Assembly: GCA_016717005.1 (NCBI GenBank)
Contig: JADJUF010000037.1
Coordinates: 759,011-791,010, forward strand
Reading direction: 5' to 3'
Length of the DNA: 32,000 nucleotides
From: Myxococcales bacterium
GTDB taxonomy: Bacteria; Myxococcota_A; Polyangia; Haliangiales; Haliangiaceae
Shown here: positions 1,952 to 30,101 of the stretch, one piece after another
How the letters are laid out: each line of letters begins with the position of its first letter
Position numbering within the stretch: position 1 is the first letter of the stretch
The notes under the pieces: generated by a model
Database searches by the model: none
What the model saw: the letters and a program-made list of their open reading frames with translations, nothing else
Told to the model about the DNA's origin: nothing
Program-made: the position numbers and the translations under genes

Positions 1952-3112
1952 TCACAGGGCCTCCTCGTAGTTGTGGGCCTTGGGGTAGGTGTCGTCGACC
2001 TGGTCGATGGTCGGGCCGCCGCTGGCGCACTGCAGCGTCGACTCGAGCACCGTGGTCGACGCGAAGTTGATGATGTCCCAGGCCTCGGGCCCGGGGATGT
2101 AGGCTGGGTCGCAGTCGAACAACAGGCCGGCCGCGGCCGCGCCGCACAGCTGGTAGTCGTTGGCGATCTCGAGCAGGTCCTTGCCCGCGGCGTTCTTGGT
2201 CTCGCACAGATCGGAGAACGCGAGGTGGGCGCCGCCGACGATGCTGAGGTAGTGGCGGGGCGTGGCCGAGGTCGACCACGCGGTGTGCGCCGCCGACGGC
2301 TGGACGATGCCGTCCTGGTCGCCGGCCATGAACAGCACGCGCTCGAGCGTCGACGAGGCGGCCGCGGCCTGGTTGCCGGCCATGCTGATCACCACGCGCA
2401 CGCCCGGCAGCGCGGTCGACGACGCGGCCACGCCGGCGCCGGCCGAGTGCCCGGCGACGCCGATCCGGGTGGCGTCGACGTGCCCGGCCAGGAACGCCAG
2501 GTCGTCGGTGGGCGCGCCCAGCGCGGCGATCTCGGCGGCGACGTCGCCGGCCAGGTCGCGGGCGCCGGTCGGCGTGTCGGGGCACAGCATCGTCAGGATG
2601 TCGCCGAGGATCAGGCCCGGGTGATCGGCGGCGATCACCACGAAGCCGCGGCTGGCCCAGTGCGTGACGATCGGCAGCGACTGGTGGCGGAACGCGGCGG
2701 TGCCGTGGACGAACACCACCGCCGGGTACGGGCCGTGGGCGTCGTCGAGGGGCAGGTCGCGGTAGCAGTCGCAGGTCTGCCACGGGTTGTCGGCGTCGCT
2801 GATGACGTCCTGCTGCATCGGGTTGAGCGCCTGGCGCAGGTCGTAGCGCGCCGGCGTCTGCCCAGCCTCGCTGCCGCGGGTGGCCGGGTACCAGACCTCG
2901 ACCTTGCCGAGCCGACCCAGCGCGACGGTGCGCGCGCCGACCGGCCACGGCCCCCGCTCGGCCGGGTCGTGTGGCTTCGACAGGAGCGTCGCGCCGGCGC
3001 AGCCCGGGATGTCGACGACCGGCGCGGGGCCGCCGTCGTCGCCGCCGCAGGCGACGAGCGGGGCCAGCATGCCGACGACGGTGGCGAGCGCGATCGGGCG
3101 GGCGGTGCGCAT
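1952..3112 (-). CDS. Alpha/beta-hydrolase lipoprotein (PAF-acetylhydrolase / dienelactone-hydrolase-like)
   Basis: ORF 1952..3112-. N-terminus MRTARPIALATVVGMLAPLVACGG (lipobox). Nucleophile elbow GHSAG in IGVAGHSAGAG. Upstream VFVHG oxyanion-type strand. Confidence 0.85.
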   Translation of the reverse strand: MRTARPIALATVVGMLAPLVACGGDDGGPAPVVDIPGCAGATLLSKPHDPAERGPWPVGARTVALGRLGKVEVWYPATRGSEAGQTPARYDLRQALNPMQQDVISDADNPWQTCDCYRDLPLDDAHGPYPAVVFVHGTAAFRHQSLPIVTHWASRGFVVIAADHPGLILGDILTMLCPDTPTGARDLAGDVAAEIAALGAPTDDLAFLAGHVDATRIGVAGHSAGAGVAASSTALPGVRVVISMAGNQAAAASSTLERVLFMAGDQDGIVQPSAAHTAWSTSATPRHYLSIVGGAHLAFSDLCETKNAAGKDLLEIANDYQLCGAAAAGLLFDCDPAYIPGPEAWDIINFASTTVLESTLQCASGGPTIDQVDDTYPKAHNYEEAL

Positions 3113-3232
3113 GCCCGGACGCTAGCAGCGATGCGCGGCGGTGCGCGCGCGGATCATCGGCCTGGCGGCCGCGGCGAGCGCGACCGTCGCTGACCGCCCG
3201 CTTACTCGGGCTTTCGCGGTACCGTGGGGTCG

Positions 3233-3772
3233 ATGATCCGCATCGAGCTGGCGCCGTGGCAGCCGGTCCGCACCGCGGAGCTCGTCGGCGTCGCGGCGCT
3301 GGCGGCCTTGCTCGCGGTGCTGGTGCTCGGCGACGACAGCGGCTGGACGCCGGTGGTCGACGGCGCCAACCTGGCGTTCCACGAGGCCGGCCACATGGTC
3401 TACGGCGTGTTCGGCGCCACCGCGGCGCTGTACGGCGGCGTGCTCGGGCAGCTGACGTTCCCGGTCGCGACCGCGGCGACGTTCTTCCTGCGCCGGCAGC
3501 CCCACGGCGTCGCGGTCGGGGTGATCTGGTTCGGCCAGAACCTGTGGAACATCGCGCGCTACATGGCCGACGCCCGCGCCCAGGAGCTGCCGCTGGTCGG
3601 CGGCGGCGAGCACGACTTCACCAACATCTTCACGCGCTGGCACGTGCTCGGGCGCGACACCACGATCGCCGCGTGGACCCGCGGGCTCGGCTGGGCGCTG
3701 GTGGCCGGGGCGCTGGCGTGGCTGGCGTGGCGCTGGCGCCGCGACGCGCGGGCCGCCGGCGATGGTGTATAG
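3233..3772 (+). CDS. Integral membrane protein with HExxH zinc-protease motif
   Basis: ORF 3224..3772+ (GTG 3224, ATG 3233). It has several hydrophobic helices and the motif FHEAGHMV. It is divergent from the hydrolase gene. Confidence 0.7.
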   Translation: MIRIELAPWQPVRTAELVGVAALAALLAVLVLGDDSGWTPVVDGANLAFHEAGHMVYGVFGATAALYGGVLGQLTFPVATAATFFLRRQPHGVAVGVIWFGQNLWNIARYMADARAQELPLVGGGEHDFTNIFTRWHVLGRDTTIAAWTRGLGWALVAGALAWLAWRWRRDARAAGDGV

Positions 3773-3780
3773 AACGCGCG

Positions 3781-4428
3781 ATGAACAAGCTCGCGGCTCT
3801 CGTGATCCTCGCCGCGGCGTGCGGCGGCAAGTCGACGCCGACCACGCCCGGCAACACCGGCGGCGGCGCCAGCGGTCCGGTCTACGCGGCGCTGCTCGAG
3901 CAGGGCGCGCGCTGGTCGTTCGCGCTGACCCACAAGGTCACGCCGCCGGTCGATGACGGCCCGCCCACCACCGAGGCCGCCGGCGCGATGACCTGCACCG
4001 TCGCCATGGCGCACCCGATGGGCGACCTGCAGCTGTCCAAGATCGAGTGCGTCGGCGAGCAGGCGCCCGGCGACGGCTTCGCGCCCGCCGGCTACTGGGT
4101 GGCCAGCCCCGCCGGCCTGTGGCACCTCGACGGCTCGCTCACGATGGACGAGGTCCACGCCCAGGTCGCGGCGCTCGATCCCAAGAAGATGCTGATCGCC
4201 GCGACCCCGGCCGCGCACTCGGACCAGCTCGGCGACCTCGACAACGGCGACGGCCTCGAGGTCTTCGCCGCCAAGCCCGGCGCCGGCGGCGGCTGGTGCG
4301 TCGCCTACACGATGGCGATGGGCGACGAGGCCGGCTGGGAGCTGTGCCTCACCGCCGGCGCGATCGCGTCGGGCAGCTGGTTCTCGGCCGGCGCGACCGT
4401 CGACGAGATGAGCTACGTCGCGCAGTGA
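3781..4428 (+). CDS. Hypothetical lipoprotein
   Basis: This is the tail of track ORF 2971..4428+. ATG 3781 gives MNKLAALVILAAACGGKSTP (signal peptide + Cys), followed by balanced composition. Confidence 0.75.
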   Translation: MNKLAALVILAAACGGKSTPTTPGNTGGGASGPVYAALLEQGARWSFALTHKVTPPVDDGPPTTEAAGAMTCTVAMAHPMGDLQLSKIECVGEQAPGDGFAPAGYWVASPAGLWHLDGSLTMDEVHAQVAALDPKKMLIAATPAAHSDQLGDLDNGDGLEVFAAKPGAGGGWCVAYTMAMGDEAGWELCLTAGAIASGSWFSAGATVDEMSYVAQ

Positions 4429-4437
4429 ACGGTCACT
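4424..4437. terminator. Short hairpin joining two convergent stop codons (AGTGA-acgg-TCACT)
   Basis: TGA 4426-4428 (+ gene) and TCA 4433-4435 (- gene) sit in the two 5-bp arms. There is no U-tract. Confidence 0.3.
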
Positions 4438-5500
4438 CGCAGGCGTAGCCGCGGACGAGGCCGTCGGCGCTGGCGGCGACGATGACGCCGGTGGTCGGCT
4501 CGATCGCGATGTCGACCGCGGCGGCGATGGGCTCGGTGCGCACGGGCCGGAGGTCGGCGAGCGTCCACCAGGTCAGCTCGGCGCCGTCGCCGCGCTGGGC
4601 CAGGGTCACGGCGAGGCCGTCGCCGTCGAGGCGGAGCACGCGATCGATCCGGACGTCGGTGGTGGCGAGGGCGCGCGGCCCGGCCGCGAGCTGGTCGCTG
4701 TCGAACCGTGCGATGAGCTGATCGCCGGCCGCGACCACCGACGCACCGCTGGGATCGGTGGCGAGGCTGCGGAACCAGCCCTGCGCGAGACCGCCGCCGG
4801 CGCCGTTGCAGGTGTCCCAGGCGACGGCGGCCGCGGTCGGGTCGGCGAGGTCGCGCCGCTCGATCGCCGGGCAGCCGTACCACTCGCCGACCGTGAGCCA
4901 GCGATCGCCGGGGGCCAGGCGCGCGGCCGCGGCGTGCCACAAGGTCGTCGTCAGCGGGCCCACGCGCGCGCCGGTCGCCAGCTCGACCAGCGTCAGATCG
5001 CCCGCGAAGGAGTCGGTGGCGCCGGCCAGCCAGCGGCCGTCGTCGTCGAGCGCCGCCGCGACGCCGGCGGCGGGCAAGAGCGCCTGGCGCGGCCCGAGCG
5101 CGCCGGCGGCCACGATCCAGGTCGACGCGCCGCCCTCGACGTCGATCGCCGCGACCGTGCCGTCGGCGGTGGCCGTGAGCGCGGCGGTGGCCACGCCGCT
5201 GGTGGCGAGGGGCTCGCCGTAGCCCGGGCGCACGGCCGTGGCGCCGGCCGCCGACAGGTGCCAGGGCTTGACCGCGCCGTCGGCGCTGGCGATCACGAAG
5301 GACGCCCCGGCGCCCGCCAGCGCGGTGATCGGCGCGTGGACGTTGTCGACCCGCCACCGGGTCGTGACCGCGACCGCCGGATCGGCGCACCGCGCCAGCG
5401 GCGACGGCGGGACCGGCGGCGGCGGCGGCGGCGCGGCCGCGTCGGTGCAGGCGAGGGTGGCGGAGGTGAGGCTGGCGAGGGCGATGACCGAGGTGCGCAT
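4433..5500 (-). CDS. Hypothetical lipoprotein, possibly beta-propeller-like
   Basis: ORF 4433..5533-. ATG 5500 gives MRTSVIALASLTSATLACTD, with GAGGA 9 nt upstream. The mature part has repetitive Ala/Gly/Asp/Trp beta-strand-like segments. Confidence 0.75.
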   Translation of the reverse strand: MRTSVIALASLTSATLACTDAAAPPPPPPVPPSPLARCADPAVAVTTRWRVDNVHAPITALAGAGASFVIASADGAVKPWHLSAAGATAVRPGYGEPLATSGVATAALTATADGTVAAIDVEGGASTWIVAAGALGPRQALLPAAGVAAALDDDGRWLAGATDSFAGDLTLVELATGARVGPLTTTLWHAAAARLAPGDRWLTVGEWYGCPAIERRDLADPTAAAVAWDTCNGAGGGLAQGWFRSLATDPSGASVVAAGDQLIARFDSDQLAAGPRALATTDVRIDRVLRLDGDGLAVTLAQRGDGAELTWWTLADLRPVRTEPIAAAVDIAIEPTTGVIVAASADGLVRGYACE

Positions 5501-5689
5501 GGCGGCATCCTCAGGGGATCGGCGCTCTAACAAAAGCTTGATTATCTGACGCTACCGTTCAGTTTTCGTTGGGATGACGAAGGGCCCATCGAACGCCGAC
5601 GTCGTCGATGGCCCGGGCGGCGACGACCGTCACCTGACGCGCCGTCGGGTCGGCCGTCGGGTAGATCGTGCGCCGCCGCGGCCGCGCCC

Positions 5690-6139
5690 TCAGCGGGCCC
5701 AGAGCTCGAGCTGGGCCTTGCCGCCGCCGGGGAGGTTGCCGTAGCGGAACTCGACGCGGCGGATCGCGCGGTTGCCGCCGGGCAGATCGATGTCGCGGCT
5801 CCACGCGCCCTGGCCGAAGACGAGGCGCGTGCCGGGGGAGAACGAGGTGCCGTCGCCGAACACCACGACGACGTCGAACAGCTCGAGCGCGCTGTGCTCG
5901 GCCTTGAGCTTGATGGTGGTGAAGCGGCCGTCGTCGCGCCCGACGGGGATGACGTCGCGATCGGCGCGGCCGTTGACCCAGCGCTCGCCGAGCTTGTCCC
6001 AGCCGGTCATGGCCTCGACCCGATGGTCGCGGGCGTCGTCACGGCGCTCGGCCGCGCGCGGCCCGGGGCGGGTCTTGACGACGCAGGCGGTGAGCGACAG
6101 GGCGAGGAAGGCGAGGGCGAAGGCGCGAGAGATCGTCAT
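5690..6139 (-). CDS. Hypothetical lipoprotein
   Basis: ORF 5690..6259-. The internal ATG 6139 gives MTISRAFALAFLALSLTACVV (lipobox LTAC). The rest is well-balanced sequence (...TTIKLKAEHSALELFDVVVVFGDGTSF...). Confidence 0.75.
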   Translation of the reverse strand: MTISRAFALAFLALSLTACVVKTRPGPRAAERRDDARDHRVEAMTGWDKLGERWVNGRADRDVIPVGRDDGRFTTIKLKAEHSALELFDVVVVFGDGTSFSPGTRLVFGQGAWSRDIDLPGGNRAIRRVEFRYGNLPGGGKAQLELWAR

Positions 6140-6339
6140 GCTGCTTGGACCATGATCTGCGCCGTTGGTTAGGACCGACCCGCGATCGAACCGGGCGGCG
6201 CGCATCCCGGCCCTTTGGGTAGAGCAACCCGCGTGCCGCGCGCAGGCCCGCGCGATCACGTCGTCGCCGGGATCTGCAGGTCCCGGTGCGGCTCAGCCTA
6301 TTGCTCGTCGACGGGCACGCCGGGTCGATCTAGCAGGCC

Positions 6340-6512
6340 GCACGCCGCGGTCGGAGTGTACCGGCGCGGCACCAGCCCGGGCCTCACGGCGCGGTCGGCG
6401 TGTACCGGCGCGGCGGCCCGGGCCTCACGGCGCGGTTGGCGTGCGTCGGAGTGGCACCAGCCCGGGGCTCACGGCGCGGTCGGCTTGCGCCGGAGCGGCA
6501 CCAGCCCGGGGC
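6340..6512 (-). repeat. Four tandem units (44, 41, 44, 44 bp) reproducing the last 13 codons + stop of gene 6469..7038
   Basis: Units are 6340-6383, 6384-6424, 6425-6468 and 6469-6512 (the last is the real gene end). TCA (the stop on the minus strand) starts units 2-4 and has become GCA in unit 1. Divergence increases with distance from the gene. Confidence 0.9.
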
Positions 6513-7038
6513 GCAGCGGCGCGGCGATGCCGGCCTCGAAGTCGACCCAGATGTTGGCGTCCTCGCGGCAGTCGTACTGTCGGCACTGGGCCGGGCGGTG
6601 CGCGTAGCACTGGCAACCGCCGTCGGTGCGATCCTGGTACGCGCACGAGCCGTGGTCGCCGTGCGGCAGGACGTAGGGCTGCTCGAGCCGCCACGCCAGC
6701 TTGCCCTCGACCAGATCCTGCTCCGACAGGCTGATGTCGTACGCGCAGCACCGGCCGTGGCACAGGTGCATGCGGCTGGCGCAGTCGATCTCGGCGCCCG
6801 CCATCCCGTACTTGTCGGGCGCGGACTCGAGCCGGATCTGCGGCTCGGTGATCAGCCGCGCGTGCTGGCGCAGGCGCGTGAGCATGCGCAGGTGGCCCTC
6901 GCCGAGCTGGCCCCGCGCGCGCAGGATCTCGAGCAGCGTCTCGACCACGTAGCCGAGCTCGGCGGCGGTCTGCTCGGCGCGCTCGCTGATCGCCATCGCG
7001 CGCCGCAGCTCGGCGCGCAGCTCGTCGAGCTCGTCCAT
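6469..7038 (-). CDS. YkgJ-family cysteine-cluster (Zn/Fe-binding) protein
   Basis: ORF 6469..7038-. Cys-rich core CASRMHLCHGRCCAYDISL ... GSCAYQDRTDGGCQCYAHRPAQCRQYDC, typical of the UPF0153/YkgJ family. Its start lies 12 nt after the stop of the upstream hydrolase gene. Confidence 0.8.
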   Translation of the reverse strand: MDELDELRAELRRAMAISERAEQTAAELGYVVETLLEILRARGQLGEGHLRMLTRLRQHARLITEPQIRLESAPDKYGMAGAEIDCASRMHLCHGRCCAYDISLSEQDLVEGKLAWRLEQPYVLPHGDHGSCAYQDRTDGGCQCYAHRPAQCRQYDCREDANIWVDFEAGIAAPLRPGLVPLRRKPTAP

Positions 7039-7050
7039 GGACGCGCGCGC

Positions 7051-11959: not shown

Positions 11960-12586
11960 ATGACGCCCCGCTGGATCACCCCGCTCCTCGCCGCCCTCGC
12001 GCTGTCCGGCTGCGCCGAGAAGAAGGCCTCGCCGCCGGCGCCGACCGCGGCGCAGCGGGCGCCCGCCGGCGTGCAGCCTCCGGGGCCGAGCCGGGATCGC
12101 CGGGTGCCGATCCGCCCGCGGCCGCAGCTGCCCGACCGGCCGGATGGCGCCGACCAGGCGCCGAGCGATCGCGCGGACCGCCCGTGGGCCGGTCGGGGTG
12201 ACCCGCGCAGCCGCGAGGAGCGCCAGGCCGCGCGCACCGAGCGCCGCGCCGAGATGATGGACATGTACGACGCCGATCAGGACGGCGCGCTGTCGGACGC
12301 CGAGCGCGCCGCGATGCGCGAGAGCCGGGTCGTCGACATGATCGGGCGCCTCGACGCCAACGAAGACGGGCGCCTGACCGAGGACGAGTTCGCGCAGTTC
12401 GGCGCCCGCGGCCGCGGCCCCGCGCTCGACTTCGCGACCGTCGACGCCGACCACGACGGCGCGATCAGCGCCGAGGAGATGAGCGCGGCCCTGCCGGCCC
12501 GGGGGCCTGGCGATCGCCCGCCCGGCGCCCGCCCGGGCCGCCGCGGCTCCGATGACGGCGCGCCGCCTGCCCCGCCGACGCCGTGA
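11960..12586 (+). CDS. EF-hand calcium-binding lipoprotein
   Basis: This is the tail of track ORF 11630..12586+. ATG 11960 has GGAG 8 nt upstream. N-terminus MTPRWITPLLAALALSGCAEKK (LSGC lipobox). Three DxDxDG loops: DADQDGALSDAE, DANEDGRLTEDE and DADHDGAISAEE. Confidence 0.8.
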   Translation: MTPRWITPLLAALALSGCAEKKASPPAPTAAQRAPAGVQPPGPSRDRRVPIRPRPQLPDRPDGADQAPSDRADRPWAGRGDPRSREERQAARTERRAEMMDMYDADQDGALSDAERAAMRESRVVDMIGRLDANEDGRLTEDEFAQFGARGRGPALDFATVDADHDGAISAEEMSAALPARGPGDRPPGARPGRRGSDDGAPPAPPTP

Positions 12587-12597
12587 CGCGCGTCAGA

Positions 12598-13139
12598 TCA
12601 CGGCGCGCCAGCTGCGCGTCGGACGCCTGATCGCGCAGCGGGTCACGGCGGGCCCGCCCGTGACCTCGTAGCGCGAGGCGCCGTCGAGCGCGTGGCCGTC
12701 GCGGACGCCTGATCGCGCCGGTCACGGCGCGCGCGCCCCCGTGACCTCGTAGCTCGAGGTGCAATCGATCGCGTGGCCGTCGCGGACGCTCACCGCGCGG
12801 CGCGTCACGGCGCGCGCGCCCCCGTGACCTCGTAGCTCGAGGTGCAGTCGATCGCGTGGCCGTCGCGGACGCCTCACCGCGCGGCCGGTCACGGCGCGCG
12901 CGCCCCGGTGACCTCGGAGCTCGAGGTGCAATCGATCGCGTGGCCGTCGCGGACGCTCACCGCGCGGCGCGTCACGGCGCGCGCGCCCCCGTGACCTCGT
13001 AGCTCGAGGTGCAGTCGATCGCCTGGCCGTCGCGGACGCCTCACCGCGCGGCGGGTCACGGCGCCCGCGCCCCCGTGACCTCGTAGCTCGAGGTGCAGTC
13101 GATCGCCTGGCCGTCGACGGCGCCGTGGGCCCGCGCGGT
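12598..13139 (-). repeat. Seven tandem units (45, 79, 83, 84, 83, 84, 84 bp) reproducing the last ~27 codons + stop of gene 13056..13574
   Basis: Units start at the TCA at 12598, 12643, 12722, 12805, 12889, 12972 and 13056 (the last is the real gene end). Units 3+4 and 5+6 form a 167-bp higher-order repeat with 4 mismatches. The two distal units are degraded. The array fills the convergent gap to the EF-hand gene. Confidence 0.95.
13054..13080 (-). terminator. 8-bp GC-rich stem-loop with the stop codon in its 3' arm (GGTCACGG-11 nt-CCGTGACC), repeated in every 83/84-bp unit
   Basis: Arms are 13054-13061 and 13073-13080. In the mRNA the arms cover codons E-V-T-G and P-stop. The same stem (7-8 bp) recurs at about 12721, 12804, 12888 and 12971. 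There is no U-tract. Confidence 0.45.
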
Positions 13140-13574
13140 CGCGACGCCGGTGATCGCGCCGTCGGCCAGCGCGCCGTCGGCGCGGATCAGCACCTCGACC
13201 GCGCCGCCCTGCTGGGTGCCCCAGCCGCCCACGACGAACGTGCCGTCGCCGTCGAGCCCGCCGGCGAGGCGGTCGAGGGCGAGGCTGGAGGTGTCGAGCA
13301 CCAGCCGCCCGTCGGTCTGCGTCACGTCGGCGCCGCCGTGATCGACCTCGCCGACGTCGCACAGCGACGCGGTGAAGCTGCCGACCTTGACCGTGCACCG
13401 CCCCGCGCACGCGCTGGTGTACAGCGTCAGGTCGTAGCTGCCGGTCGCGTCGGCGCCGGTGGCGTCGCCCGGCGGCAGGTCGGCGACGTCGACCCGCTCG
13501 AGCAGATCGCCCGGGCCGCCGCCGCAGCCCAGCGCGAGGGCCGCGAGCGCGGCCCAACCGCGGGCGCCGGTCAC
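13056..13574 (-). CDS. Hypothetical lipoprotein
   Basis: Inside ORF 13056..13832-. GTG 13574 gives VTGARGWAALAALALGCGGG (signal peptide + Cys). This GTG overlaps the upstream gene's TGA (13571-13573) as GTGA. Confidence 0.7.
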   Translation of the reverse strand: MTGARGWAALAALALGCGGGPGDLLERVDVADLPPGDATGADATGSYDLTLYTSACAGRCTVKVGSFTASLCDVGEVDHGGADVTQTDGRLVLDTSSLALDRLAGGLDGDGTFVVGGWGTQQGGAVEVLIRADGALADGAITGVATARAHGAVDGQAIDCTSSYEVTGARAP

Positions 13575-14212
13575 GGCGCGTCCGCCAGCGCGAGGGTCAG
13601 GTCGAGATCGCGCACGATCACGTCGCCGAAGTTCCAGATCGGCCCCGCGACCCGCGCGTCGACGGTCGCGACCACCGCGGGCCCGTCGGCGGTGACCTGC
13701 AGCTCGAGCCCGACGTCGCCGATGCGCTGGCTGGCGAACGGCAGCACGTCGCCGTCGTCGGCCCGCAGCGCCCAGTCGAGCACCAGCTCGACCGTGGTCG
13801 ACGTGTCGACGCCGGCGCCGTCGGCCCGCCACGCCGCGACGCCGTCGCGCTGGGTGCCCAGGCGCAGGTGCAGGTCGGTCAGGTGCAAGACGCGGGTCGT
13901 GTCGCCGAGCGCGTGCTCGAGGTCGACGTCGTCGAGATCGATCGTGAGCGCCTGGACCGCCAGGCGGTCGTCACCGACCGCGCGGACGACCACCTGGCCG
14001 CCGCGCACCCCGGGCGTCACCGGTCGCGCCACCCCGGCCTGGTCCGCGGTCAGCGCGACCGCGCCGCCGCGCAGGATCGGCAAGGCGGCGCCCGCCGCGA
14101 GCCGGCCCTCGAGCGCGCCCGCGGCGGGCCCGTCGGCCCCGTCCACGGTGCAAGCGCCGAGCGCCAGCAGGCACGCCGTGGCCATGATTGATTGAACGTT
14201 CATTCGGTTCAT
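13571..14212 (-). CDS. Hypothetical lipoprotein
   Basis: ORF 13571..14212-. N-terminus MNRMNVQSIMATACLLALGACTVD (lipobox LGAC). It has a 4-nt overlap with the next gene, so an operon is likely. Confidence 0.75.
   Translation of the reverse strand: MNRMNVQSIMATACLLALGACTVDGADGPAAGALEGRLAAGAALPILRGGAVALTADQAGVARPVTPGVRGGQVVVRAVGDDRLAVQALTIDLDDVDLEHALGDTTRVLHLTDLHLRLGTQRDGVAAWRADGAGVDTSTTVELVLDWALRADDGDVLPFASQRIGDVGLELQVTADGPAVVATVDARVAGPIWNFGDVIVRDLDLTLALADAP
14190..14205. promoter_or_regulatory. Operator-like 16-bp AT-rich palindrome, copy 1 (GATTGAACGTTCATTC)
   Basis: One of four copies of GAaTGAAC/ATTCATTC in the window. It overlaps the first codons of the lipoprotein gene that starts at 14212. 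A half-site ATTCATT also lies at 14218-14224. Confidence 0.5.
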
Positions 14213-14971: not shown

Positions 14972-15445
14972 TCAGGTCCGCGCCAGCGCGTCGAGGCACA
15001 GGCGCTTGAGCTCGTCGGCGAGCGCGGCGTCGCGGCGCGCCAGCCCGAGCAACCCGTCGACCAGCGCCGGCGTCGGGATCGCGGTCAGGGCCTGGCGCAG
15101 CAGGTCGACGCCGCGCTCGGCGTCGACGCGCTGCCGCTCGAGGTGCGCCAGCGTGATCGCGACCGTGTGCTTGCACAGGTGGCGCTCGAGGCCGACCGGG
15201 CACGTGCACGCGTAGGCCAGGCCGTCGGCGCGCACCCACAGCCGCACCGCGTAGGGCGCGCGCGTCGCCTCGGTCGGGCGCACGACGCCGCGCAGCTCGC
15301 CGGGGCCGGCGATGACCTCGGCCACGCGGCCGGCGGCGAAGCAGCGCTCGCCGCGCTCGAAGGTCCGCACGCCCGCGATCGTCGCGATCGTGCCGCGGTG
15401 CAGGATGTTGGCGATGCCGGTGTCCACGCGCCGACGATCGCACAC
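14972..15445 (-). CDS. SWIM zinc-finger domain protein
   Basis: ORF 14972..15445- (GTG start; alternative GTG at 15427). CxC-x(n)-CxH motif in YACTCPVGLERHLCKHTVA. Confidence 0.8.
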   Translation of the reverse strand: MCDRRRVDTGIANILHRGTIATIAGVRTFERGERCFAAGRVAEVIAGPGELRGVVRPTEATRAPYAVRLWVRADGLAYACTCPVGLERHLCKHTVAITLAHLERQRVDAERGVDLLRQALTAIPTPALVDGLLGLARRDAALADELKRLCLDALART

Positions 15446-15458
15446 GCCGGCCGGGCGG

Positions 15459-15722
15459 TCAGCCCTCGCCGGTGCGGACGAACTTCTCGACCGTGCTCGC
15501 CCTCAGCCCTCGCCGGTGCGGACGAACTTCTCGACCGTGCTCGCCCTCAGCCCTCGCCGGTGCGGACGAACTTCTCGACCGTGCTCGCCCTCAGCCCTCG
15601 CCGGTGCGGACGAACTTCTCGACCGTGCTCGCCCTCAGCCCTCGCCGGTGCGGACGAACTTCTCGACCGTGCTCGCCCTCAGCCCTCGCCGGTGCGGACG
15701 AACTTCTCGACCGTGCTCGCCG
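15459..15722 (-). repeat. Six tandem 44-bp units (five identical plus the real gene end, 43/44) reproducing the last 13 codons + stop of gene 15679..16149
   Basis: Unit tcagccctcgccggtgcggacgaacttctcgaccgtgctcgccc starts at 15459, 15503, 15547, 15591, 15635 and 15679. I checked the copies base by base. The array ends 13 nt upstream of the SWIM gene start. Confidence 0.97.
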
Positions 15723-16149
15723 TCAGCTTGAACGCCTGGCGGACGCGGCCGCGCCGGACCTCCTCGTCGGTCGCGACGTCGGTCACCACCAGGATCGCGT
15801 GGGGATCGTCATCGTCGATCGCGACGTCGAGGTCGGCCTTGACCCGCGCGCCGGCGTCGGTCGTGAACGTCAAGGTCCTGTGCAGGGCCGCGCGCGCCGA
15901 CTGCTCGTGGCGCCGCAGCACCTCGCTCGCGGTCTTGACCAGCGTGGCGAACGCGCCGGCGTCGAGCGGCTTGGGGTTGCGCTTGTCGCGGCCCATCGTC
16001 CACGGCCCCACCAGCGCCGGCTCGTCGTCGCCCACGCGGGTCATGGCCACGGCCCAGCCGTCGTCGTCCTCGTTCTTCTGGACCTGCGCGATCCAGCCGG
16101 CCTTGCGCCAGCGGGTCGGCTCGGTGATGTCCTCGGGAGTCGTCTCCAT
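15679..16149 (-). CDS. Hypothetical acidic cytoplasmic protein
   Basis: ORF 15679..16149-. METTPEDITEPTRWRKAGWIAQVQKNEDDDGWAVAMTRVG... Balanced composition with no signal peptide. Confidence 0.75.
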   Translation of the reverse strand: METTPEDITEPTRWRKAGWIAQVQKNEDDDGWAVAMTRVGDDEPALVGPWTMGRDKRNPKPLDAGAFATLVKTASEVLRRHEQSARAALHRTLTFTTDAGARVKADLDVAIDDDDPHAILVVTDVATDEEVRRGRVRQAFKLTASTVEKFVRTGEG

Positions 16150-20328: not shown

Positions 20329-21036
20329 TCACGGGATGCACTCGCACGCGTACTCCTGGGTGCCGTTGTCGAACCAGTCGTAGAACTGTCCGCTGCTGCT
20401 GACCAGGACGTAGATCTCGCCCATGCGCGCGTTGGGCTGCCCGGGCGCGAACGGTGGATTCGCGAAGGTCTGGTTCTCGACCGTGGTCCAGATACCGTCG
20501 CGCTGCGGATCGGAGATGCCGGCCCAGTAGAACGGCGAGCTGCCGTTCGGATTCACGAAGCTGTAGACCGCGGTCGCTTCACCGGTCGTCTCGGGGATGA
20601 CGAGGTAGCCACCGTCCGACCTGCAGTCGGCCGCGGCGCTGGTCCACAGCGTCAGCGTATTGACCCGTCGATACCGTGACGTGGCCGGCGCCCCGGTGAC
20701 CGCCTGATAGCCGACACAGCGCGGCTGGGCGTCGATCGGCTGGGCGTCGATCGGCTGGGCGTCGATCGGCTGGGCGTCGATCGGGCGGGCGTCGATCGGC
20801 TGGGCGTCGATCGGCTGGGCATCGATCACCTGGGCGTCGATCACCTGGGCGTCGATCACCTGCGCGTCGATCACCTGGGCGTCAGGCGCCGCATCGACCG
20901 CCGCCGCGTCCAGGTCGGCGTCGGGCGTTGCGCCGCCGTCGCCCGGGCCGTCGATCGTCGCGGCGTCCAGGGTCCCCGTGGCGGCGCGCGGATCGAATGC
21001 GCACGAGGCCAGGACGATCAGGGCGAGGTACCGCAT
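20329..21036 (-). CDS. C-type lectin domain lipoprotein with pentapeptide-repeat linker
   Basis: ORF 20329..21036-. N-terminus MRYLALIVLASCAFD (lipobox). Linker (DAQVI)x4 then (DA[QR]PI)x7. C-terminal CTLD hallmarks: WTSAAADCRSDGGYLV, YWAGISDPQRDGIWT and YDWFDNGTQEYACE. Confidence 0.85.
   Translation of the reverse strand: MRYLALIVLASCAFDPRAATGTLDAATIDGPGDGGATPDADLDAAAVDAAPDAQVIDAQVIDAQVIDAQVIDAQPIDAQPIDARPIDAQPIDAQPIDAQPIDAQPRCVGYQAVTGAPATSRYRRVNTLTLWTSAAADCRSDGGYLVIPETTGEATAVYSFVNPNGSSPFYWAGISDPQRDGIWTTVENQTFANPPFAPGQPNARMGEIYVLVSSSGQFYDWFDNGTQEYACECIP
20723..20887 (-). repeat. Eleven in-frame 15-bp tandem repeats inside the lectin gene
   Basis: Seven ggctgggcgtcgatc-type units are followed by four acctgggcgtcgatc-type units. 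They encode DAQPI and DAQVI respectively. Confidence 0.95.
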
Positions 21037-21108
21037 CGCTCCACCCTAGCACCGGCCGCCGGAGCCCGGGGCTCGACCGCGGGGCCCTCCCCCGGCCATC
21101 GATCCGTA

Positions 21109-23091: not shown

Positions 23092-24720
23092 ATGCGACGC
23101 TCGAGTCGACGCCTGCTGGTGCTGGTCGCGGCGCTGCCCGTGACGCTGGTCCTGCTGGCGTTCCTCTACATGCTCGGGATGGCGCACCTCGAGGGCAAGG
23201 AGCGCGGCTTCTGGCAGGCGCTCGAGTGGGCCGGCGAGACCGTGACCACGACCGGCTACGGCGCCGACTCGGGCTGGACTCACCCGGTGATGGTCGTGTT
23301 CACGGTCGTGACCCAGTTCGTCGGCGTGTTCATGACCTTCCTGGTCTTCCCTGTGTTCCTGATCCCGTTCTTCGAGGAGCGGTTCGAGGGACGCCTGCCG
23401 ACCAAGCTGCCGACCCGCGCCGGCACCGTGCTGGTCTACCGCTGGGGCCCGGCGGTCGCGACCTTGGTCGACGAGCTGACCCGCGAGCGGGTCCCGGTGG
23501 TGATCCTCGAGAACGACCTGGCGATCGCCCGCCGCATCCGCGATCGCGGCCACACGGTCGTCCACGGCGATCTCGATCTCGACGACGACGTCCTCGGTGA
23601 GCTGCGCGGCGTCCGCGGCATCGTCGCGAACGGCCAGGATCACCAGAACGCGGTGCTGACGCTGAGCGCGCGCCAGCGCGGCTTCAAGGGGCCGATCGTC
23701 GCGCTGGTCGAGACCCCGAGCCGGCGCGCGCCGATGATGCGCGCCGGGGCCACCGCGGTGTTCACGCCGCGCCACGCCCTCGCGGCCGCGCTCGCAGCCA
23801 AGGCCAGCGTGAAGATCAGCCCGCGCGTCACCGGCGAGCGCCGCCTGGGCAAGGCCCTCGAGATCGCCGAGGTCCGCGTGCACCGCGGCAGCGCGCTGGT
23901 CGGCACGACCCTGGCGACCGCCAACCTGCGCGGCGAGACCGGCGCCACGATCATCGGCAAGTGGATCGGCGGTGAGCTCGACGCGCCGCCGTCCCCGACC
24001 CAGCCGATGGAGGTCGGGACGATCCTGGTCGCCGCGGGCAGCCGCGACGCGATCGCGCGGCTGGGCGAGCTGGCGACGCCGGTGGCGCGCACCGGCCGGT
24101 TCTTGATCCTCGGCAACGACGAGACCGGCCGCAAGGTCGCCGAGTTCCTGCGCGACGCCGGCGAGGAGGTCACGGTCATCGACGATCAGCCCGGCGCCGG
24201 CGTCGACGTGGTCGGCGACATCCTCGATCCTGAGCTGCTCCGCCGCGCGGGCATCGCCGGGGCGCAGGCGGTGCTGCTGGTCATGGAGAGCGACAGCGAG
24301 ACCACGTTCGCCGCGGCCGTCGTCCGCGATCTGGTCAGCGACGCCGCGGTGATCGCCAGCGTCGACAACGCCGACCACGTCGCCCGGGTCCACCGCGCAG
24401 GCGCCGACTTCGTCCTGTCGATCGGGCAGGTCGCGGGTCAGCTGCTGTCGTTCCAGATCCTGGGCGAGGAGGCCGTGACCCTGCAGCCCGAGATCAAGCT
24501 GGTCAAGACCCTGGCCGGCGCCCTGGCCGGGCAACGCCTGCGCGCCGCGAAGGTGCGCGAGCGCACCGGGTGCCTGGTGATCGCGGTCGAGCGGACCGAC
24601 GAGGTCGTCGTCGACTTCCCGGGCGACTTCGTGATCGGCGCCGACGACGTCGTCTACATCAGCGGCACGCCGGCCACGATCGCCCAGTACTTCGAGACGT
24701 TCGCCGGAACCCGCCCGTGA
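23092..24720 (+). CDS. Potassium channel with two RCK (TrkA-N/TrkA-C) domains
   Basis: ORF 23092..24720+. Two TM helices flank the selectivity filter TVTTTGYGAD. Two Rossmann-like RCK-N segments follow, each with a TrkA-C-like segment. Confidence 0.9.
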   Translation: MRRSSRRLLVLVAALPVTLVLLAFLYMLGMAHLEGKERGFWQALEWAGETVTTTGYGADSGWTHPVMVVFTVVTQFVGVFMTFLVFPVFLIPFFEERFEGRLPTKLPTRAGTVLVYRWGPAVATLVDELTRERVPVVILENDLAIARRIRDRGHTVVHGDLDLDDDVLGELRGVRGIVANGQDHQNAVLTLSARQRGFKGPIVALVETPSRRAPMMRAGATAVFTPRHALAAALAAKASVKISPRVTGERRLGKALEIAEVRVHRGSALVGTTLATANLRGETGATIIGKWIGGELDAPPSPTQPMEVGTILVAAGSRDAIARLGELATPVARTGRFLILGNDETGRKVAEFLRDAGEEVTVIDDQPGAGVDVVGDILDPELLRRAGIAGAQAVLLVMESDSETTFAAAVVRDLVSDAAVIASVDNADHVARVHRAGADFVLSIGQVAGQLLSFQILGEEAVTLQPEIKLVKTLAGALAGQRLRAAKVRERTGCLVIAVERTDEVVVDFPGDFVIGADDVVYISGTPATIAQYFETFAGTRP

Positions 24721-25071
24721 TCCGCGGCCCGCGCCGCCACCGCGCCGCCACCGCGCCGGCGCGCGCGGCCCCTCGCGACCTGCGCCGGCGCCCGCCGGTG
24801 ATCGATGGCGCGCGCGCCGCCACCGCGCCGGCGCGCGCGGCCTGCGCGACCTGCGCCGGCGCTCGCCGGTGATCGATGGCGCGCGCGCCGCCACCGCGCC
24901 GGCGCGCGCGGCCTGCGCGACCTGCGCCGGCGCCCGCCGGTGATCGATGGCGCGCGCGCCGCCACCGCGCCGGCGCGCGCGGCCTGCGCGACCTGCGCCG
25001 GCGCCCGCCGGTGATCGATGGCGCGCGCGCCGCCACCGCGCCGGCGCGCGCGGCCTGCGCGACCTGCGCCG
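24707..25071 (+). repeat. Five tandem units (81, 71, 71, 71, ~60 bp) each containing a copy of the K+ channel gene's last ~4 codons + TGA + a strong GC hairpin
   Basis: TGATC starts units at 24718 (the real stop), 24799, 24870, 24941 and 25012. Units 3 and 4 are identical and unit 2 differs by 1 nt. Unit 1 carries an extra 11-bp duplication (gccaccgcgcc). Confidence 0.95.
24809..24839 (+). terminator. 11-bp all-G:C stem with 9-nt loop (CGCGCGCGCCG-ccaccgcgc-CGGCGCGCGCG), repeated in units 2-5 of the array
   Basis: Arms are 24809-24819 and 24829-24839. The same hairpin recurs at +71, +142 and +213 nt. There is no U-tract. Confidence 0.5.
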
Positions 25072-25198
25072 CGGTCCGTTCAGGACGCGGTCGACGCGAT
25101 GATCCCGGGCTGCGTCCCGCGCGACGCGGAGCCGCGCCACGCGGAGCCGCGCGATCCGCAGCGACGCGCTTGCGCAACCTCGGGGGCCGCTGCTACCG

Positions 25199-26107
25199 AT
25201 GGCGATGACCACCATGCTCGTGCCGTGCGTCTGGCTCGACGATCAAGCCGAGGCGGCCGCGGCGCTCTACACCGAGCTCTTCCCGGGCGGCCGGACGACC
25301 GCGGTGGCGCGCTACCCCGAGGCCACCGACAACCCCAGCGGCCGGCCGCGCGGCAGCGTGCTCACCATCGAGGTCGAGCTCGCCGGGCAGCGCTGCACCT
25401 TGCTCAACGGCGGCCCGATGTTCACGCTCAACCCGAGCCTCTCGCTGTTCGTGCAGCTCGACGACAGCACAGCTGCCCGTCGACTGTTCGGTCGGCTCGC
25501 CGAGGGAGGCGAGGTGCGGATGCCGCTCGACCAGTACCCGTGGAGCCCGTGCTACGGCTGGGTCCAGGATCGGTTCGGCGTGTCGTGGCAGGTGATCACC
25601 GGCCGGCGCGCGCCCGCCGGCGACACGATCGTCCCGTGCCTGATGTTCGCGGGCGCCCAGCACGGTCGGGCCGAGGAGGCGCTGCGCCGGTACGCCGCGA
25701 TCTTCCCCGACGGCCGCGTCGACAGCCTCGAGCCGTACGGGCCCGACGAGGGCCCCGCCGGCACGCTCAAGCACGGGCGCTGCACGCTCGCCGGGCACGA
25801 GCTGGTGGCGATGGACAGCCACCTCGCCCACGACGTCGCGTTCAACGAGGCGCTGTCGCTGCAGGTGATGTGCGCCGATCAGGCCGAGGTCGATCGCTGC
25901 TGGGACGCGCTGGTCGACGGCGGCACGCCTGGCCCGTGCGGCTGGTTGAAGGATCGGTTCGGCGTGTCGTGGCAGGTCGTGCCGAGCGCGATCGCCGCGT
26001 GGATGGCCGGCCCCGACACCGCCGCGCGCGACCGCGCGTTCGCGGCGATGCTGACGATGGGCAAGCTCGACGTCGCCGCGCTCGAGCGCGCCTTCACCGG
26101 CGCGTGA
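25199..26107 (+). CDS. VOC-superfamily protein, tandem PhnB / 3-demethylubiquinone-9 3-methyltransferase-like domains
   Basis: ORF 25199..26107+. MLVPCVWLDDQAEAAAALYTELFPGG and two copies of DRFGVSWQV are typical of the PF06983-type fold. Confidence 0.85.
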   Translation: MAMTTMLVPCVWLDDQAEAAAALYTELFPGGRTTAVARYPEATDNPSGRPRGSVLTIEVELAGQRCTLLNGGPMFTLNPSLSLFVQLDDSTAARRLFGRLAEGGEVRMPLDQYPWSPCYGWVQDRFGVSWQVITGRRAPAGDTIVPCLMFAGAQHGRAEEALRRYAAIFPDGRVDSLEPYGPDEGPAGTLKHGRCTLAGHELVAMDSHLAHDVAFNEALSLQVMCADQAEVDRCWDALVDGGTPGPCGWLKDRFGVSWQVVPSAIAAWMAGPDTAARDRAFAAMLTMGKLDVAALERAFTGA

Positions 26108-27447: not shown

Positions 27448-27465
27448 GCCGCGCGCGCGGCGGCG

Positions 27466-27559
27466 TCAGGCCGCGTCGGCGTCGGTGATCGGCGACGGCG
27501 CGCGGGCCGGGGTCAGGCCGCGTCGTCGTCGGTGATCAGCGCGACGATGATCGCGTCGC
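27466..27559 (-). repeat. 47-bp duplication of the 3' end + stop of gene 27513..28109 (units 27466-27512 and 27513-27559)
   Basis: The first 29 nt after each TCA are 27/29 identical (tcaggccgcgtcgNcgtcggtgatcNgcg) and the remainder has decayed. The copy would encode ...PITDADAA-stop versus the real ...LITDDDAA-stop. Confidence 0.85.
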
Positions 27560-28109
27560 CCGAGTCCGGGTAGGCGTAGCCGAGGTGGAGCGCGGGGCCC
27601 CGGTTGACCGCGGCGAACGCCCCGGCCTCGACCAGGTGCAGGATCGCGCGGGCGATCGCGAACCGGACGTGCCCCTCGAGCCAACCGTCCTCGCCGCCCT
27701 GGTTGAGCGCCTCGTACTGGGGCGAGCGCAGGAACGGATCGTAGCTGATCGTGAACTCATGGACGGCCTCGTCGCACGACGTGTACTCGCCGTAGCGTGG
27801 GTCGAACGTGCGGGCCTCGGTCCGGGCCGCGACGGTCTTGGCGGTCTGCCAGCTGTCGGGCCGGCCCGCGACCTCGGGGATCAGCGCGCGCATCTGCGCG
27901 TTGCGCGCCTTGGCGCCCGCCTGGTTGCGCGCGGCGGTGTCGAGGTGGACCTCGTACCAGCCCTTGTACGGATCGGCCCACAGCACGATCGCCGCCAGCG
28001 GCTCGTCGCCGTGGCCCAGGGCGATCACGTCGATCGCGGCGCGCAGCTCGGTCACGAGCTCGGCCTCGAGCGCCTGCCAGTCAGGGGGAGCGAGCGGGTC
28101 GGCGGTCAT
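27513..28109 (-). CDS. Hypothetical cytoplasmic protein (DUF4303-like, by recollection only)
   Basis: ORF 27513..28109-. MTADPLAPPDWQALEAELVTELRAAIDVIALGHGDEPLAAIVLWADPYKGWYEVHLDTAARN... Confidence 0.7.
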   Translation of the reverse strand: MTADPLAPPDWQALEAELVTELRAAIDVIALGHGDEPLAAIVLWADPYKGWYEVHLDTAARNQAGAKARNAQMRALIPEVAGRPDSWQTAKTVAARTEARTFDPRYGEYTSCDEAVHEFTISYDPFLRSPQYEALNQGGEDGWLEGHVRFAIARAILHLVEAGAFAAVNRGPALHLGYAYPDSGDAIIVALITDDDAA

Positions 28110-28133
28110 CGGCCGAGCCTACACGGCGTCGGC

Positions 28134-29495: not shown

Positions 29496-30101
29496 TCAGC
29501 GGACGATCTCGAGCGCAATCGCGTTCGAGCGGTGGGCGCCGATCCGCCACTCGACCGTGTGCGGACCGGGCGTCGCGAAGGTGTAGCTGGTGACCTCGAA
29601 GTTGACGTCGGCGTCGGGGCCGGGCAGCACCGCCCCGTCGTAGACGCCCACCCACGGATAGTCCGGCACCTCCGGCGCGGTCGTGCGGAGCGCGCCGTCG
29701 ACGTACTCGCCGTAGGCCGGCTTGGGCCCCATCACGAACGACTCGTGGCCGGCCGCGACCTCGACGACGTGGACCACCCGCACCGGCTCGCCGACGGCGT
29801 AGCGCGTGCGCGCGGTCAAGATCGTCATCGTCAGGCCGTCGACCGTCGGGCCGTGCGGCGCGTCGGCGTAGCCCTGGGCCACGGCCTGATCCTCGGCCGG
29901 CGCCTCGACGATCGCGTCGCCCTGGCGCGCGTACAGCTCGCGGATCTTCAGCGCCGCGCCGCTCACCGCCGGCGTCGCCTGGGTCGGCGCCGCGCCGCTC
30001 GCCGCCGGCGTCGCCTGGTCTGGAGCCGCGGTCCCGGCGCACGCGCCACCGAGGCCGACGAGGATCACCAGCGGGAGCGCGCGAGACGTGACGGCGGGCA
30101 T
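29496..30101 (-). CDS. Hypothetical lipoprotein
   Basis: Inside ORF 29496..30287-. ATG 30101 gives MPAVTSRALPLVILVGLGGACAG. Just after the signal peptide there is an in-frame ~33-bp duplication (APDQATPAASGA / APTQATPAVSGA). Confidence 0.75.
   Translation of the reverse strand: MPAVTSRALPLVILVGLGGACAGTAAPDQATPAASGAAPTQATPAVSGAALKIRELYARQGDAIVEAPAEDQAVAQGYADAPHGPTVDGLTMTILTARTRYAVGEPVRVVHVVEVAAGHESFVMGPKPAYGEYVDGALRTTAPEVPDYPWVGVYDGAVLPGPDADVNFEVTSYTFATPGPHTVEWRIGAHRSNAIALEIVR

Follow-up and report, generated by a model that had tools for sequence, protein, structure and literature searches.

Related repeat systems at bacterial gene ends

Microhomology-mediated tandem duplication (MTD) is reported to be the dominant source of tandem repeats, with long GC-rich microhomology arms ~1,000-fold more prone to tandem duplication (bioRxiv 10.64898/2026.02.28.708716). 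The bacterial minisatellites, or VNTRs, that arise in this way are head-to-tail copies of a locally derived segment (bioRxiv 10.64898/2026.02.28.708716). The MIRU-VNTR loci of Mycobacterium tuberculosis consist of tandem 40-100 bp units between co-directional genes in a GC-rich genome; their ends overlap the adjacent genes and they contain G+C-rich internal inverted repeats (PMC3184786). The REP and BIME elements of enterobacteria and pseudomonads are G+C-rich extragenic stem-loops which follow gene ends, often in clusters, and they are reported to influence mRNA stability (PMC3184786).

The array considered here follows a K+ channel gene in a 32-kb window, which is the whole stretch of DNA that was analysed. 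It shares the head-to-tail, locally derived organisation of MTD minisatellites. It also has GC-rich microhomology at its boundaries, a single-copy state in a relative, near-identical inner copies with diverged edge copies, and persistence without gene breakage. It differs from them in two respects: the density of arrays in the window is ~23 times that of control loci, and most of the arrays contain a stop codon. The tandem structure, unit size and gene context are like those of MIRU-VNTR loci. However, MIRUs are a dispersed related family of ~40-50 loci with signs of insertion, whereas each array in this window has its own unit, made of the local gene end and spacer. REPs, which also follow gene ends as GC-rich stem-loops, occur as hundreds of dispersed copies of one family, either singly or in mosaic clusters; in contrast, the array consists of direct tandem copies that include the stop codon, and within the window it is found at this locus only.

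Structure of the array

The K+ channel / TrkA-type gene (23092-24720, plus strand) encodes TrkA_N and TrkA_C domains (Pfam) and has a GC3 of 0.96. Its native stop codon is the TGA at 24718-24720, and orthologues terminate at the same position. The next gene on the same strand (25199-26107) belongs to PF06983, a 3-demethylubiquinone-9 3-methyltransferase / glyoxalase-like fold (Pfam). An earlier note on this DNA had placed a co-directional gene here with its start at 25199; the gene is present, but its start codon is more probably at 25205, the position that aligns with the ATG of the gene in the closest relative.

TRF reports an array of period 71 with 4.6 copies and 98% matches at 24741-25071, and a repeat search finds five in-register copies from 24703 at a spacing of 71 nt. 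All five head-to-tail units begin with TGATC, at 24718, 24799, 24870, 24941 and 25012; G+C content over the array is 87%. Unit 1 (24718-24798, 81 nt), an edge copy that has diverged, begins at the real stop codon of the K+ channel gene. At 24729-24758 TRF finds within it 2.7 copies of an 11-nt repeat with 100% identity. Its homology to the inner units is clear (z = 10.7 for the alignment versus shuffles). Units 2 (24799-24869), 3 (24870-24940) and 4 (24941-25011) are each 71 nt long; there is no difference between units 3 and 4, and unit 2 departs from both by 1 nt. Unit 5 (25012-25071) is partial, with 60 nt, and ends in CGCCG at 25067-25071. Identity among units 2-5 is 98-100%. All units lie on the plus strand and the array does not overlap the downstream gene. 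The five TGATC-headed units, the identity of units 3 and 4, the single difference in unit 2 and the divergent first unit with its own 11-nt duplication had all been described in the earlier note; TRF, the repeat search and the unit alignment agree with that description.

The TGAs of successive units occupy all three reading frames. Small ORFs which start from an ATG just 3' of each TGA span three units and change frame from unit to unit, since 71 is not a multiple of 3; they are not regarded as coding. A CRISPR array was also rejected, as the units directly adjoin one another without unique spacers.

The left edge of the array lies in the last codons of the K+ channel gene. This region (24702-24717, plus strand) contains CGCCG at 24702-24706 and CCCGCCCG at 24710-24717 in the boundary comparison, and is similar to the 3' end of every unit (GCGCCGGCGCCCGCCGG). 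CGCCG therefore occurs at both array edges, with the right arm at the end of unit 5, and CCCGCCCG at the gene end is similar to CCCGCCGG at the unit end. The amplified segment had been proposed to consist of the last ~4 codons, TGA and hairpin. It does begin at the stop codon and include the hairpin; copied codons are the less likely part. The stretch 5' of TGA matches the gene's last codons at 15/20 nt, but comparison with the closest relative shows it to be at least partly spacer-derived, so that it looks like seeding microhomology rather than copied codons.

Beyond unit 5 the expanded spacer continues as a degenerate tail (25072-25198, plus strand). TGATC occurs there for a sixth time, at 25100, and positions 25117-25154 form a second small nested repeat, of 15 nt and 2.5 copies. 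Together with the 11-nt x 2.7 repeat of unit 1, it shows that slippage has occurred repeatedly at this locus.

Comparison with relatives

L081, the closest relative found, has a K+ channel 94% identical to the one described here and the same gene pair. The two genes are separated by a 70-nt spacer with no array, which extends right up to the start of the downstream gene. A single unit and this spacer are homologous (z = 4.6; 0/500 shuffles reach the score), and the array is therefore a recent expansion of the spacer. The difference of one copy in L081 versus five here is the sole such comparison, made with a relative at this level of K+ channel identity; the searches yielded no other strain of the species. 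The tail is also explained by the ancestral spacer: its segment 25100-25198 aligns with the 3' half of the L081 spacer (z = 6.5 versus shuffles). The L081 assembly was built from short reads. Collapse of an array in it is unlikely, because its contig is continuous across the spacer and has no unit-to-unit junction. More distant Kofleriaceae relatives (70-80% identity) have no array 3' of this gene.

The comparison also bears on whether a dispersed repeat (REP/BIME-, MIRU- or MITE-like) was inserted after the gene and then amplified. The 71-nt unit size and the G+C-rich internal inverted repeats resemble those of MIRUs, as does the site between co-directional genes with overlap of the upstream gene end (PMC3184786). 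However, the unit is homologous to the native spacer of L081, and was therefore locally derived and not inserted. In the 32-kb window the unit is confined to its own array, apart from low-complexity GC matches, and the other arrays of the window have unrelated units. A 22-mer of the unit gave six chance matches only in the JGI metagenome collection, all inside coding sequence reading V-I-D-G-A-R-A. Insertion of a dispersed element is largely refuted and retains a minimal probability.

An assembly artefact is very improbable. The source is a metagenome-assembled genome, recognised by a 100%-identical protein (MBK9034862.1) on a 1.26-Mb contig, and assemblies may give a wrong copy number for short tandem arrays. 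Against this, not every copy is the same, and those at the edges have diverged and carry nested repeats of their own. The window contains several independent arrays with different units, none of which breaks a reading frame, and related genomes also bear such arrays, for example one of 107 nt x 6 in the related genome L001.

The hairpin and transcription termination

The earlier note had reported an 11-bp stem of G:C pairs only with a 9-nt loop in units 2-5, and DNA folding returns exactly that stem (24809-24819 / 24829-24839). The stem is perfect in units 2-5, where the hairpins lie at 24809-24839, 24880-24910, 24951-24981 and 25022-25052, and is present in a degenerate version in unit 1. Its predicted free energy is -28.3 kcal/mol as RNA and -20.8 kcal/mol as DNA. 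Compared with dinucleotide shuffles, the z scores as RNA are -1.1 for the hairpin alone (39 nt) and +0.5 for the whole unit; as DNA they are -1.9 and -0.1. The hairpin is thus strong in absolute terms and is not unusual for its composition. As DNA, the 39-nt hairpin is modestly more stable than its shuffles, which counts against the main explanation.

A stable GC-rich stem-loop shortly 3' of a stop codon is also found in intrinsic (Rho-independent) terminators. The stems in the array differ from these in several ways: none is followed by a T-tract, the hairpin recurs four to five times along with the stop codon, and its conservation does not extend to L081, the nearest relative. A consensus terminator scan of 24400-25400 gave zero terminator-like sites. 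A consensus promoter scan found nothing at the array locus and was at chance level over the 32-kb window, while an Rfam scan of the entire window returned zero family matches. Over the window as a whole, terminators made of a hairpin and a T run are as frequent as expected by chance, so the missing T-tract alone does not exclude a termination effect.

The hairpins might be a selected RNA-level module, either a terminator or insulator which works without a T-tract or a stabiliser of the K+ channel mRNA 3' end similar to REP/BIME elements. Four perfect -28 kcal/mol hairpins stand right after the stop codon and 5' of a co-directional gene. With T-tract terminators at chance level in the window, the organism must terminate transcription otherwise; an effect of REP clusters on mRNA stability has been reported (PMC3184786). 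The placement of the successive TGAs in all three frames would also suit such a module. However, the array is not conserved, as L081 has one short copy between the same two genes, and the predicted fold of this ancestral spacer is weaker than that of its shuffles (z = +1.9). The unit here is no more stable than shuffles, and the sister stop-anchored arrays at 15459-15727 and 6336-6524 have no notable hairpin. The units are near-identical, which indicates very recent expansion and not long maintenance. A selected module is accordingly considered unlikely, and the multi-copy terminator, insulator or 3'-end stabiliser that had been suggested is left without support: the T-tract is missing, the hairpin is comparable to shuffles and Rfam has no match.

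Proposed origin of the array

The array is probably a young lineage-specific minisatellite, formed by microhomology-mediated tandem duplication or slippage of a short spacer. It is one of several such duplications in a very GC-rich myxobacterial genome. The ancestral spacer was ~70 nt long, started at the stop codon and already contained a GC-rich imperfect palindrome. The first tandem duplication could then have arisen when replication slipped, or switched template, between two short GC-rich microhomology arms: CGCCG / CCCGCCCG within the final codons of the gene and CGCCG / CCCGCCGG close to the spacer end. Later slippage or unequal recombination would have raised the number of copies to five, with inner copies homogenised and edge copies diverged. 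Hairpin-forming (CG)n DNA probably favours slippage; the hairpin is thus more likely a cause of the repeat than a selected product.

Persistence of the array may be explained by its position. The first copy would retain the complete reading frame and stop codon of the K+ channel gene, and the remaining copies would be untranslated. As a possible by-product, ~400 nt with four hairpins of about -28 kcal/mol may impede 3' exonucleases or read-through. Any effect of the array on termination or mRNA stability would be such a by-product.

Other tandem arrays in the window

The window contains seven long-period arrays, and in five of these the stop codon lies within the first unit. In addition to the K+ channel array, stop-spanning arrays are found at 12620-13124, 15459-15727, 6336-6524 and 27451-27541; each of these four duplicates last codons and TGA. 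Of the remaining two, one (29951-30030) is a 12-aa linker repeat that stays in frame, and the other (1784-1936) is intergenic and lies just 3' of a stop codon. All seven are placed where no gene is broken. The stop-anchored geometry noted earlier for minus-strand arrays does recur in the minus-strand arrays of the window. A repeat at 12551-12654 (45 nt x 2.3, plus strand) was considered as a sixth stop-spanning array; a more probable reading is that it forms the decayed far end of the 84-nt array, and it was not counted.

The units of the four other stop-spanning arrays are unrelated to the 71-nt unit and to one another, and two of these arrays lack a hairpin; the common feature is therefore the duplication process. 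At 15459-15727 both edges of the array bear GCTGAC. This array is absent in relatives L099 and L100, and L100 shows its inferred 13-nt ancestral spacer. A difference in PhyH-PNPase spacer length among population contigs of a related species (L083, L085, L086) was examined as a possible VNTR and rejected, as it is a 43-nt hairpin indel and not a tandem repeat.

Array density is 7 per 32 kb, versus ~0.3 expected from 855 kb of control loci; plain slippage does not account for this, which counts against the main explanation. A limited literature search gave no description of comparable array density, or of stop-codon-anchored tandem repeats in myxobacteria or bacteria generally.

These figures raise the question of whether duplication is aimed at gene 3' ends, through errors where translation or transcription ends or through a lineage-specific repair defect acting genome-wide. 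Possible triggers include uncoupled or paused RNA polymerase, R-loops and collisions. Random placement would give five of seven arrays with a stop codon in the first unit at P ~ 1e-5. Stop-spanning arrays outnumber start-spanning arrays 5:0 (p = 0.03 if the two are equally tolerated), a hint that the 3' bias may have causes besides selection. The ~23-fold density also fits such a process, as do two arrays in which the duplicated segment ends 0-1 nt from the stop codon. However, selection against gene-disrupting duplications predicts this stop enrichment too, and start-spanning duplications are plausibly more harmful because new translated fragments arise from them. The stop codon is located anywhere from ~0.2 to 1.0 of the unit length among arrays, and the downstream boundary is constrained by short operon spacers. 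Furthermore, the array in L001 begins 12 nt after the stop codon and does not include it, and the sample is 32 kb only. A process directed at 3' ends is thus quite unlikely; under the preferred reading, microhomology-mediated duplication of local spacers, selection against gene disruption would account for most of the long-period arrays of the window straddling a stop codon.

It is doubtful that this Kofleriaceae-like genome has a lineage-specific process which makes tandem duplications preferentially at gene ends, with hundreds of stop-anchored minisatellites chromosome-wide. If it does, the process could be coupled to the termination of translation or transcription, or could stem from defective replication or repair at GC-rich hairpin DNA; it would also repeatedly push apart formerly tightly spaced genes.

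Significance

Taken alone, the array is an ordinary minisatellite. It is also a caution that a striking module of stop codon and hairpin can come from slippage in 87% G+C DNA, with no regulatory device involved. The window, with its seven young long-period arrays, is a natural example of how microhomology duplication and selection for gene integrity shape repeat survival. Such duplications can widen operon spacers of 13-70 nt to 230-480 nt. A 3' bias beyond the level predicted from selection would suggest that gene ends and replication errors are linked.

Structure of the array

The window has a G+C content of 73-79% across nearly its whole length. It contains a K+ channel gene (23092-24720, + strand; TrkA_N and TrkA_C domains in Pfam) whose protein is most similar to those of Kofleriaceae MAGs (Myxococcota), at 70-79% identity. 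Another of the window's proteins matches MBK9034862.1 (locus tag IPL61_26965), from an NCBI 'Myxococcales bacterium' MAG, at 100% identity. The gene is followed by a tandem repeat, reported by TRF at 24741-25071 (period 71 nt, 4.6 copies, 98% matches); a repeat search counts five in-register copies from 24703. Unit boundaries were set by cutting at TGATC. Unit 1 (24718-24798, 81 nt) opens with the TGA that ends the K+ channel gene, each of units 2-4 measures 71 nt, and unit 5 is a partial copy of 60 nt ending at 25071; all read on the + strand. The earlier note had described a five-fold repetition of stop codon plus GC hairpin, which is confirmed. Its account of unit likeness also holds: units 3 and 4 match exactly, a single nucleotide separates unit 2 from them, and unit 1 is diverged and carries an 11-nt repeat of its own (2.7 copies by TRF). 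Unit 1 is nevertheless truly homologous to the inner units (alignment z = 10.7). When the DNA is folded, the minimum-energy structure is the claimed hairpin (an all-G:C stem of 11 bp, a loop of 9 nt); it is perfect in units 2-5. The 81-nt length of unit 1 and the 71-nt length of the others put stop codons in all three frames; counted from the K+ channel reading frame, the TGAs of units 1-5 are in frames 0, 0, 2, 1 and 0.

The co-directional downstream gene (+ strand) matches PF06983 and ends at 26107. Its start had been placed at 25199; it is probably the ATG at 25205, to which the start annotated in L081, a contig from a relative, aligns. No Shine-Dalgarno-like sequence lies ahead of either ATG.

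Comparison with relatives

L081, a Logan contig from a short-read assembly, is the closest relative retrieved; its K+ channel is 94% identical. In this assembly the K+ channel gene and the downstream gene are in unchanged order, with a spacer of only 70 nt and no array. The spacer begins TGATCG and holds an imperfect GC palindrome; it folds less well than its own shuffles (z = +1.9). It aligns to one window unit with z = 4.6, a score reached by none of 500 shuffles, and its 3' half aligns to the window tail 25100-25198, which opens with a sixth TGATC (z = 6.5). The more distant L001, L002, L003, L005 and L083 population (70-80% identity) have different downstream genes and no array. Because the L081 spacer is array-free and aligns to one unit and the tail, and the distant relatives are also array-free, the window's ~480-nt spacer is a recent, lineage-specific expansion of a ~70-nt spacer starting at the stop codon. 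Unit number, which had been proposed for comparison across strains, is about five in the window versus a single-unit spacer in one relative.

In the stretch 25072-25198 that separates the array from the downstream gene (sixth TGATC at 25100), clear sharing with the L081 spacer is confined to the last ~40 nt; ~90 nt (25072-25160) lie outside it. A 15-nt repeat, CCGCGCGACGCGGAG, is present in this region in 2.5 copies (25117-25154).

Hairpin stability and transcription signals

Folding energies computed for the hairpin are -28.3 kcal/mol (RNA) and -20.8 kcal/mol (DNA). This is strong in absolute terms; however, the free-energy calculation suggested earlier reveals no excess over shuffled sequence. 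The array is 87% G+C, with CG or GC making up 55% of dinucleotides, and dinucleotide shuffles fold about equally well (z = -1.1 as RNA and -1.9 as DNA for the 39-nt hairpin alone; +0.5 and -0.1 for the whole 71-nt unit). No T-run follows any stem of the array, and a terminator scan finds zero sites at this locus. Across the 32-kb window the scan finds four hairpin plus T-tract sites, against about three expected by chance, and none at gene ends; canonical terminators seem not to be used in the window at all. Since terminator-like sites are at chance level window-wide, the lack of a T-tract counts for little in either direction. A sigma-70-like promoter scan of the 32-kb window and an Rfam search gave no matches; with regard to terminators and promoters, this genome evidently does without the textbook signals.

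The array had been proposed to act as a multi-copy terminator, insulator or 3'-end stabiliser. Four stable hairpins in a 3' region could have such an effect as a by-product, but as the reason for the array it is unlikely and not supported: the array is not conserved, its hairpin is no more stable than shuffles, there is no T-tract, and in two sister stop-spanning arrays the hairpin is not notable.

Other arrays in the window

The window holds seven arrays whose period is 30 nt or more. Five are stop-spanning, with a stop codon in their first unit: the K+ channel array (24718-25071, 71 nt x ~5) and four on the minus strand that duplicate a gene's last codons and TGA and whose stop anchoring, also claimed earlier, is confirmed. 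At 12620-13124 a unit of 84 nt (x 6) covers the final ~22 codons of the lipoprotein-like gene 13056-13832, its TGA and the ~15 nt that follow. This stop codon is part of the 3' arm of a hairpin, GTCACGG...CCGTGAC, and divergence grows toward the distal copies (84-100% identity to the reference copy). At 15459-15727 (44 nt x 6, 99%; gene 15679-16149) the unit holds nothing beyond the final 14 codons and the TGA, and GCTGAC is found at both edges. This array is missing from the related loci L099 (84% identical) and L100 (81% identical); the L100 gap to the next gene is 13 nt, equal to the window gap minus repeats. With the repeats, the distance to the next gene, whose GTG lies at 15445, has grown from an inferred 13 nt to 233 nt. 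The arrays at 6336-6524 (44 nt x ~4; gene 6469-7050) and 27451-27541 (47 nt x ~2; gene 27513-28118) are older and more degenerate (83-88% matches).

Of the remaining two, one (1784-1936) begins ~10 nt past a stop, and the other (29951-30030, 36 nt x 2.2) encodes an in-frame 12-aa repeat (APDQATPAASGA / APTQATPAVSGA); it is found in gene 29496-~30100 (-), in the linker that follows the lipoprotein signal. A second in-frame coding repeat, 15 nt x 10.8, lies at 20722-20883 inside gene 20329-21045 (-).

No array shares its unit sequence with another, and none of the units has further copies within the 32-kb window, so they are locus-specific there and a dispersed repeat family is rejected. A metagenome scan with a 22-mer from the 71-nt unit returned chance matches only. 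It is the process of duplication, rather than a hairpin, that all window arrays have in common.

Elsewhere, the Kofleriaceae MAG locus L001 carries a 107-nt unit in six copies (2237-2878, 98% identity), starting 12 nt beyond the stop codon of the gene for a sigma-54-type regulator (2890-5769, -). Nearly all variation among the copies is confined to three nucleotides, at positions 9-11 of the unit (CTGAG, CCGAG, CTGCG, CGGAG). A length difference in the PNPase gene leader between L083 (12400-12660) and L085 and L086, population contigs of a related species, was rejected as a tandem repeat; it is a 43-nt hairpin-forming indel.

Origin of the array

In an array grown and homogenised by slippage or unequal exchange, the inner units would be near-identical and those at the edges diverged; the K+ channel array fits this expectation. 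The same short GC-rich microhomology, CGCCG, is found at its two edges (24702-24706 and 25067-25071), and every unit ends (CCCGCCGG|TGATC) much as the gene does (CCCGCCCG|TGATC). The amplified segment had been read as the last ~4 codons, TGA and hairpin. The start at TGA and the hairpin stand; copied codons are less probable, as the comparison with L081 indicates that the unit's 3' end is at least partly spacer-derived. For this reason the likeness to the last ~4 codons more probably reflects microhomology that seeded the first duplication. A short GC-rich match between the gene's last bases and the unit end would have initiated the tandem duplication, and slippage or unequal exchange would then have extended and homogenised the array. 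The nested repeats in unit 1 (11 nt x 2.7) and at 25117-25154 (15 nt x 2.5) show slippage to have acted repeatedly at this locus. A 2026 preprint reports that, across life, tandem repeats arise predominantly by microhomology-mediated tandem duplication, to which long GC-rich arms are ~1,000-fold more prone (bioRxiv 10.64898/2026.02.28.708716).

The array behaves as a bacterial minisatellite born by this route. It resembles MIRU-VNTRs in unit size, site between co-directional genes and overlap with the upstream gene's end, and REP/BIME elements in being GC-rich extragenic stem-loops with a possible effect on mRNA stability (PMC3184786). However, MIRUs are defined as a dispersed family of related units, which the array is not, and it differs from REP/BIME elements in dispersal and architecture. 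It shares with intrinsic terminators only the stem-loop half of the definition.

Array density and stop bias

With long-period arrays defined by a period of 30 nt or more, 1.9 or more copies and 80% or more matches, there are seven per 32 kb in the window versus eight per 855 kb in 80 control loci (L001-L080), which predict 0.3 per 32 kb (P ~3e-8). Four of the eight control arrays fall in the four Kofleriaceae-like loci, so this lineage seems prone to such arrays.

Stop-spanning geometry in five of seven arrays has P ~1e-5 under random placement. It can be explained without function: most intragenic duplications would be purged by selection, while duplication across a stop codon would be harmless because the first copy retains the full gene and extra copies lack a start codon. 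All seven arrays are placed without destroying a reading frame. A real mechanistic bias of duplication toward gene ends is quite unlikely; the excess of stop-spanning over start-spanning arrays (5 versus 0) gives p = 0.03 if both are equally tolerated, but selection for gene integrity would already yield stop anchoring, and the sample is 32 kb. Start-spanning duplications would also keep the gene but would make new translated fragments, and are plausibly costlier.

The K+ channel array is a young stop-spanning minisatellite, an instance of an already known kind; it is unusual only in how densely arrays occur around it and in their bias toward stops.
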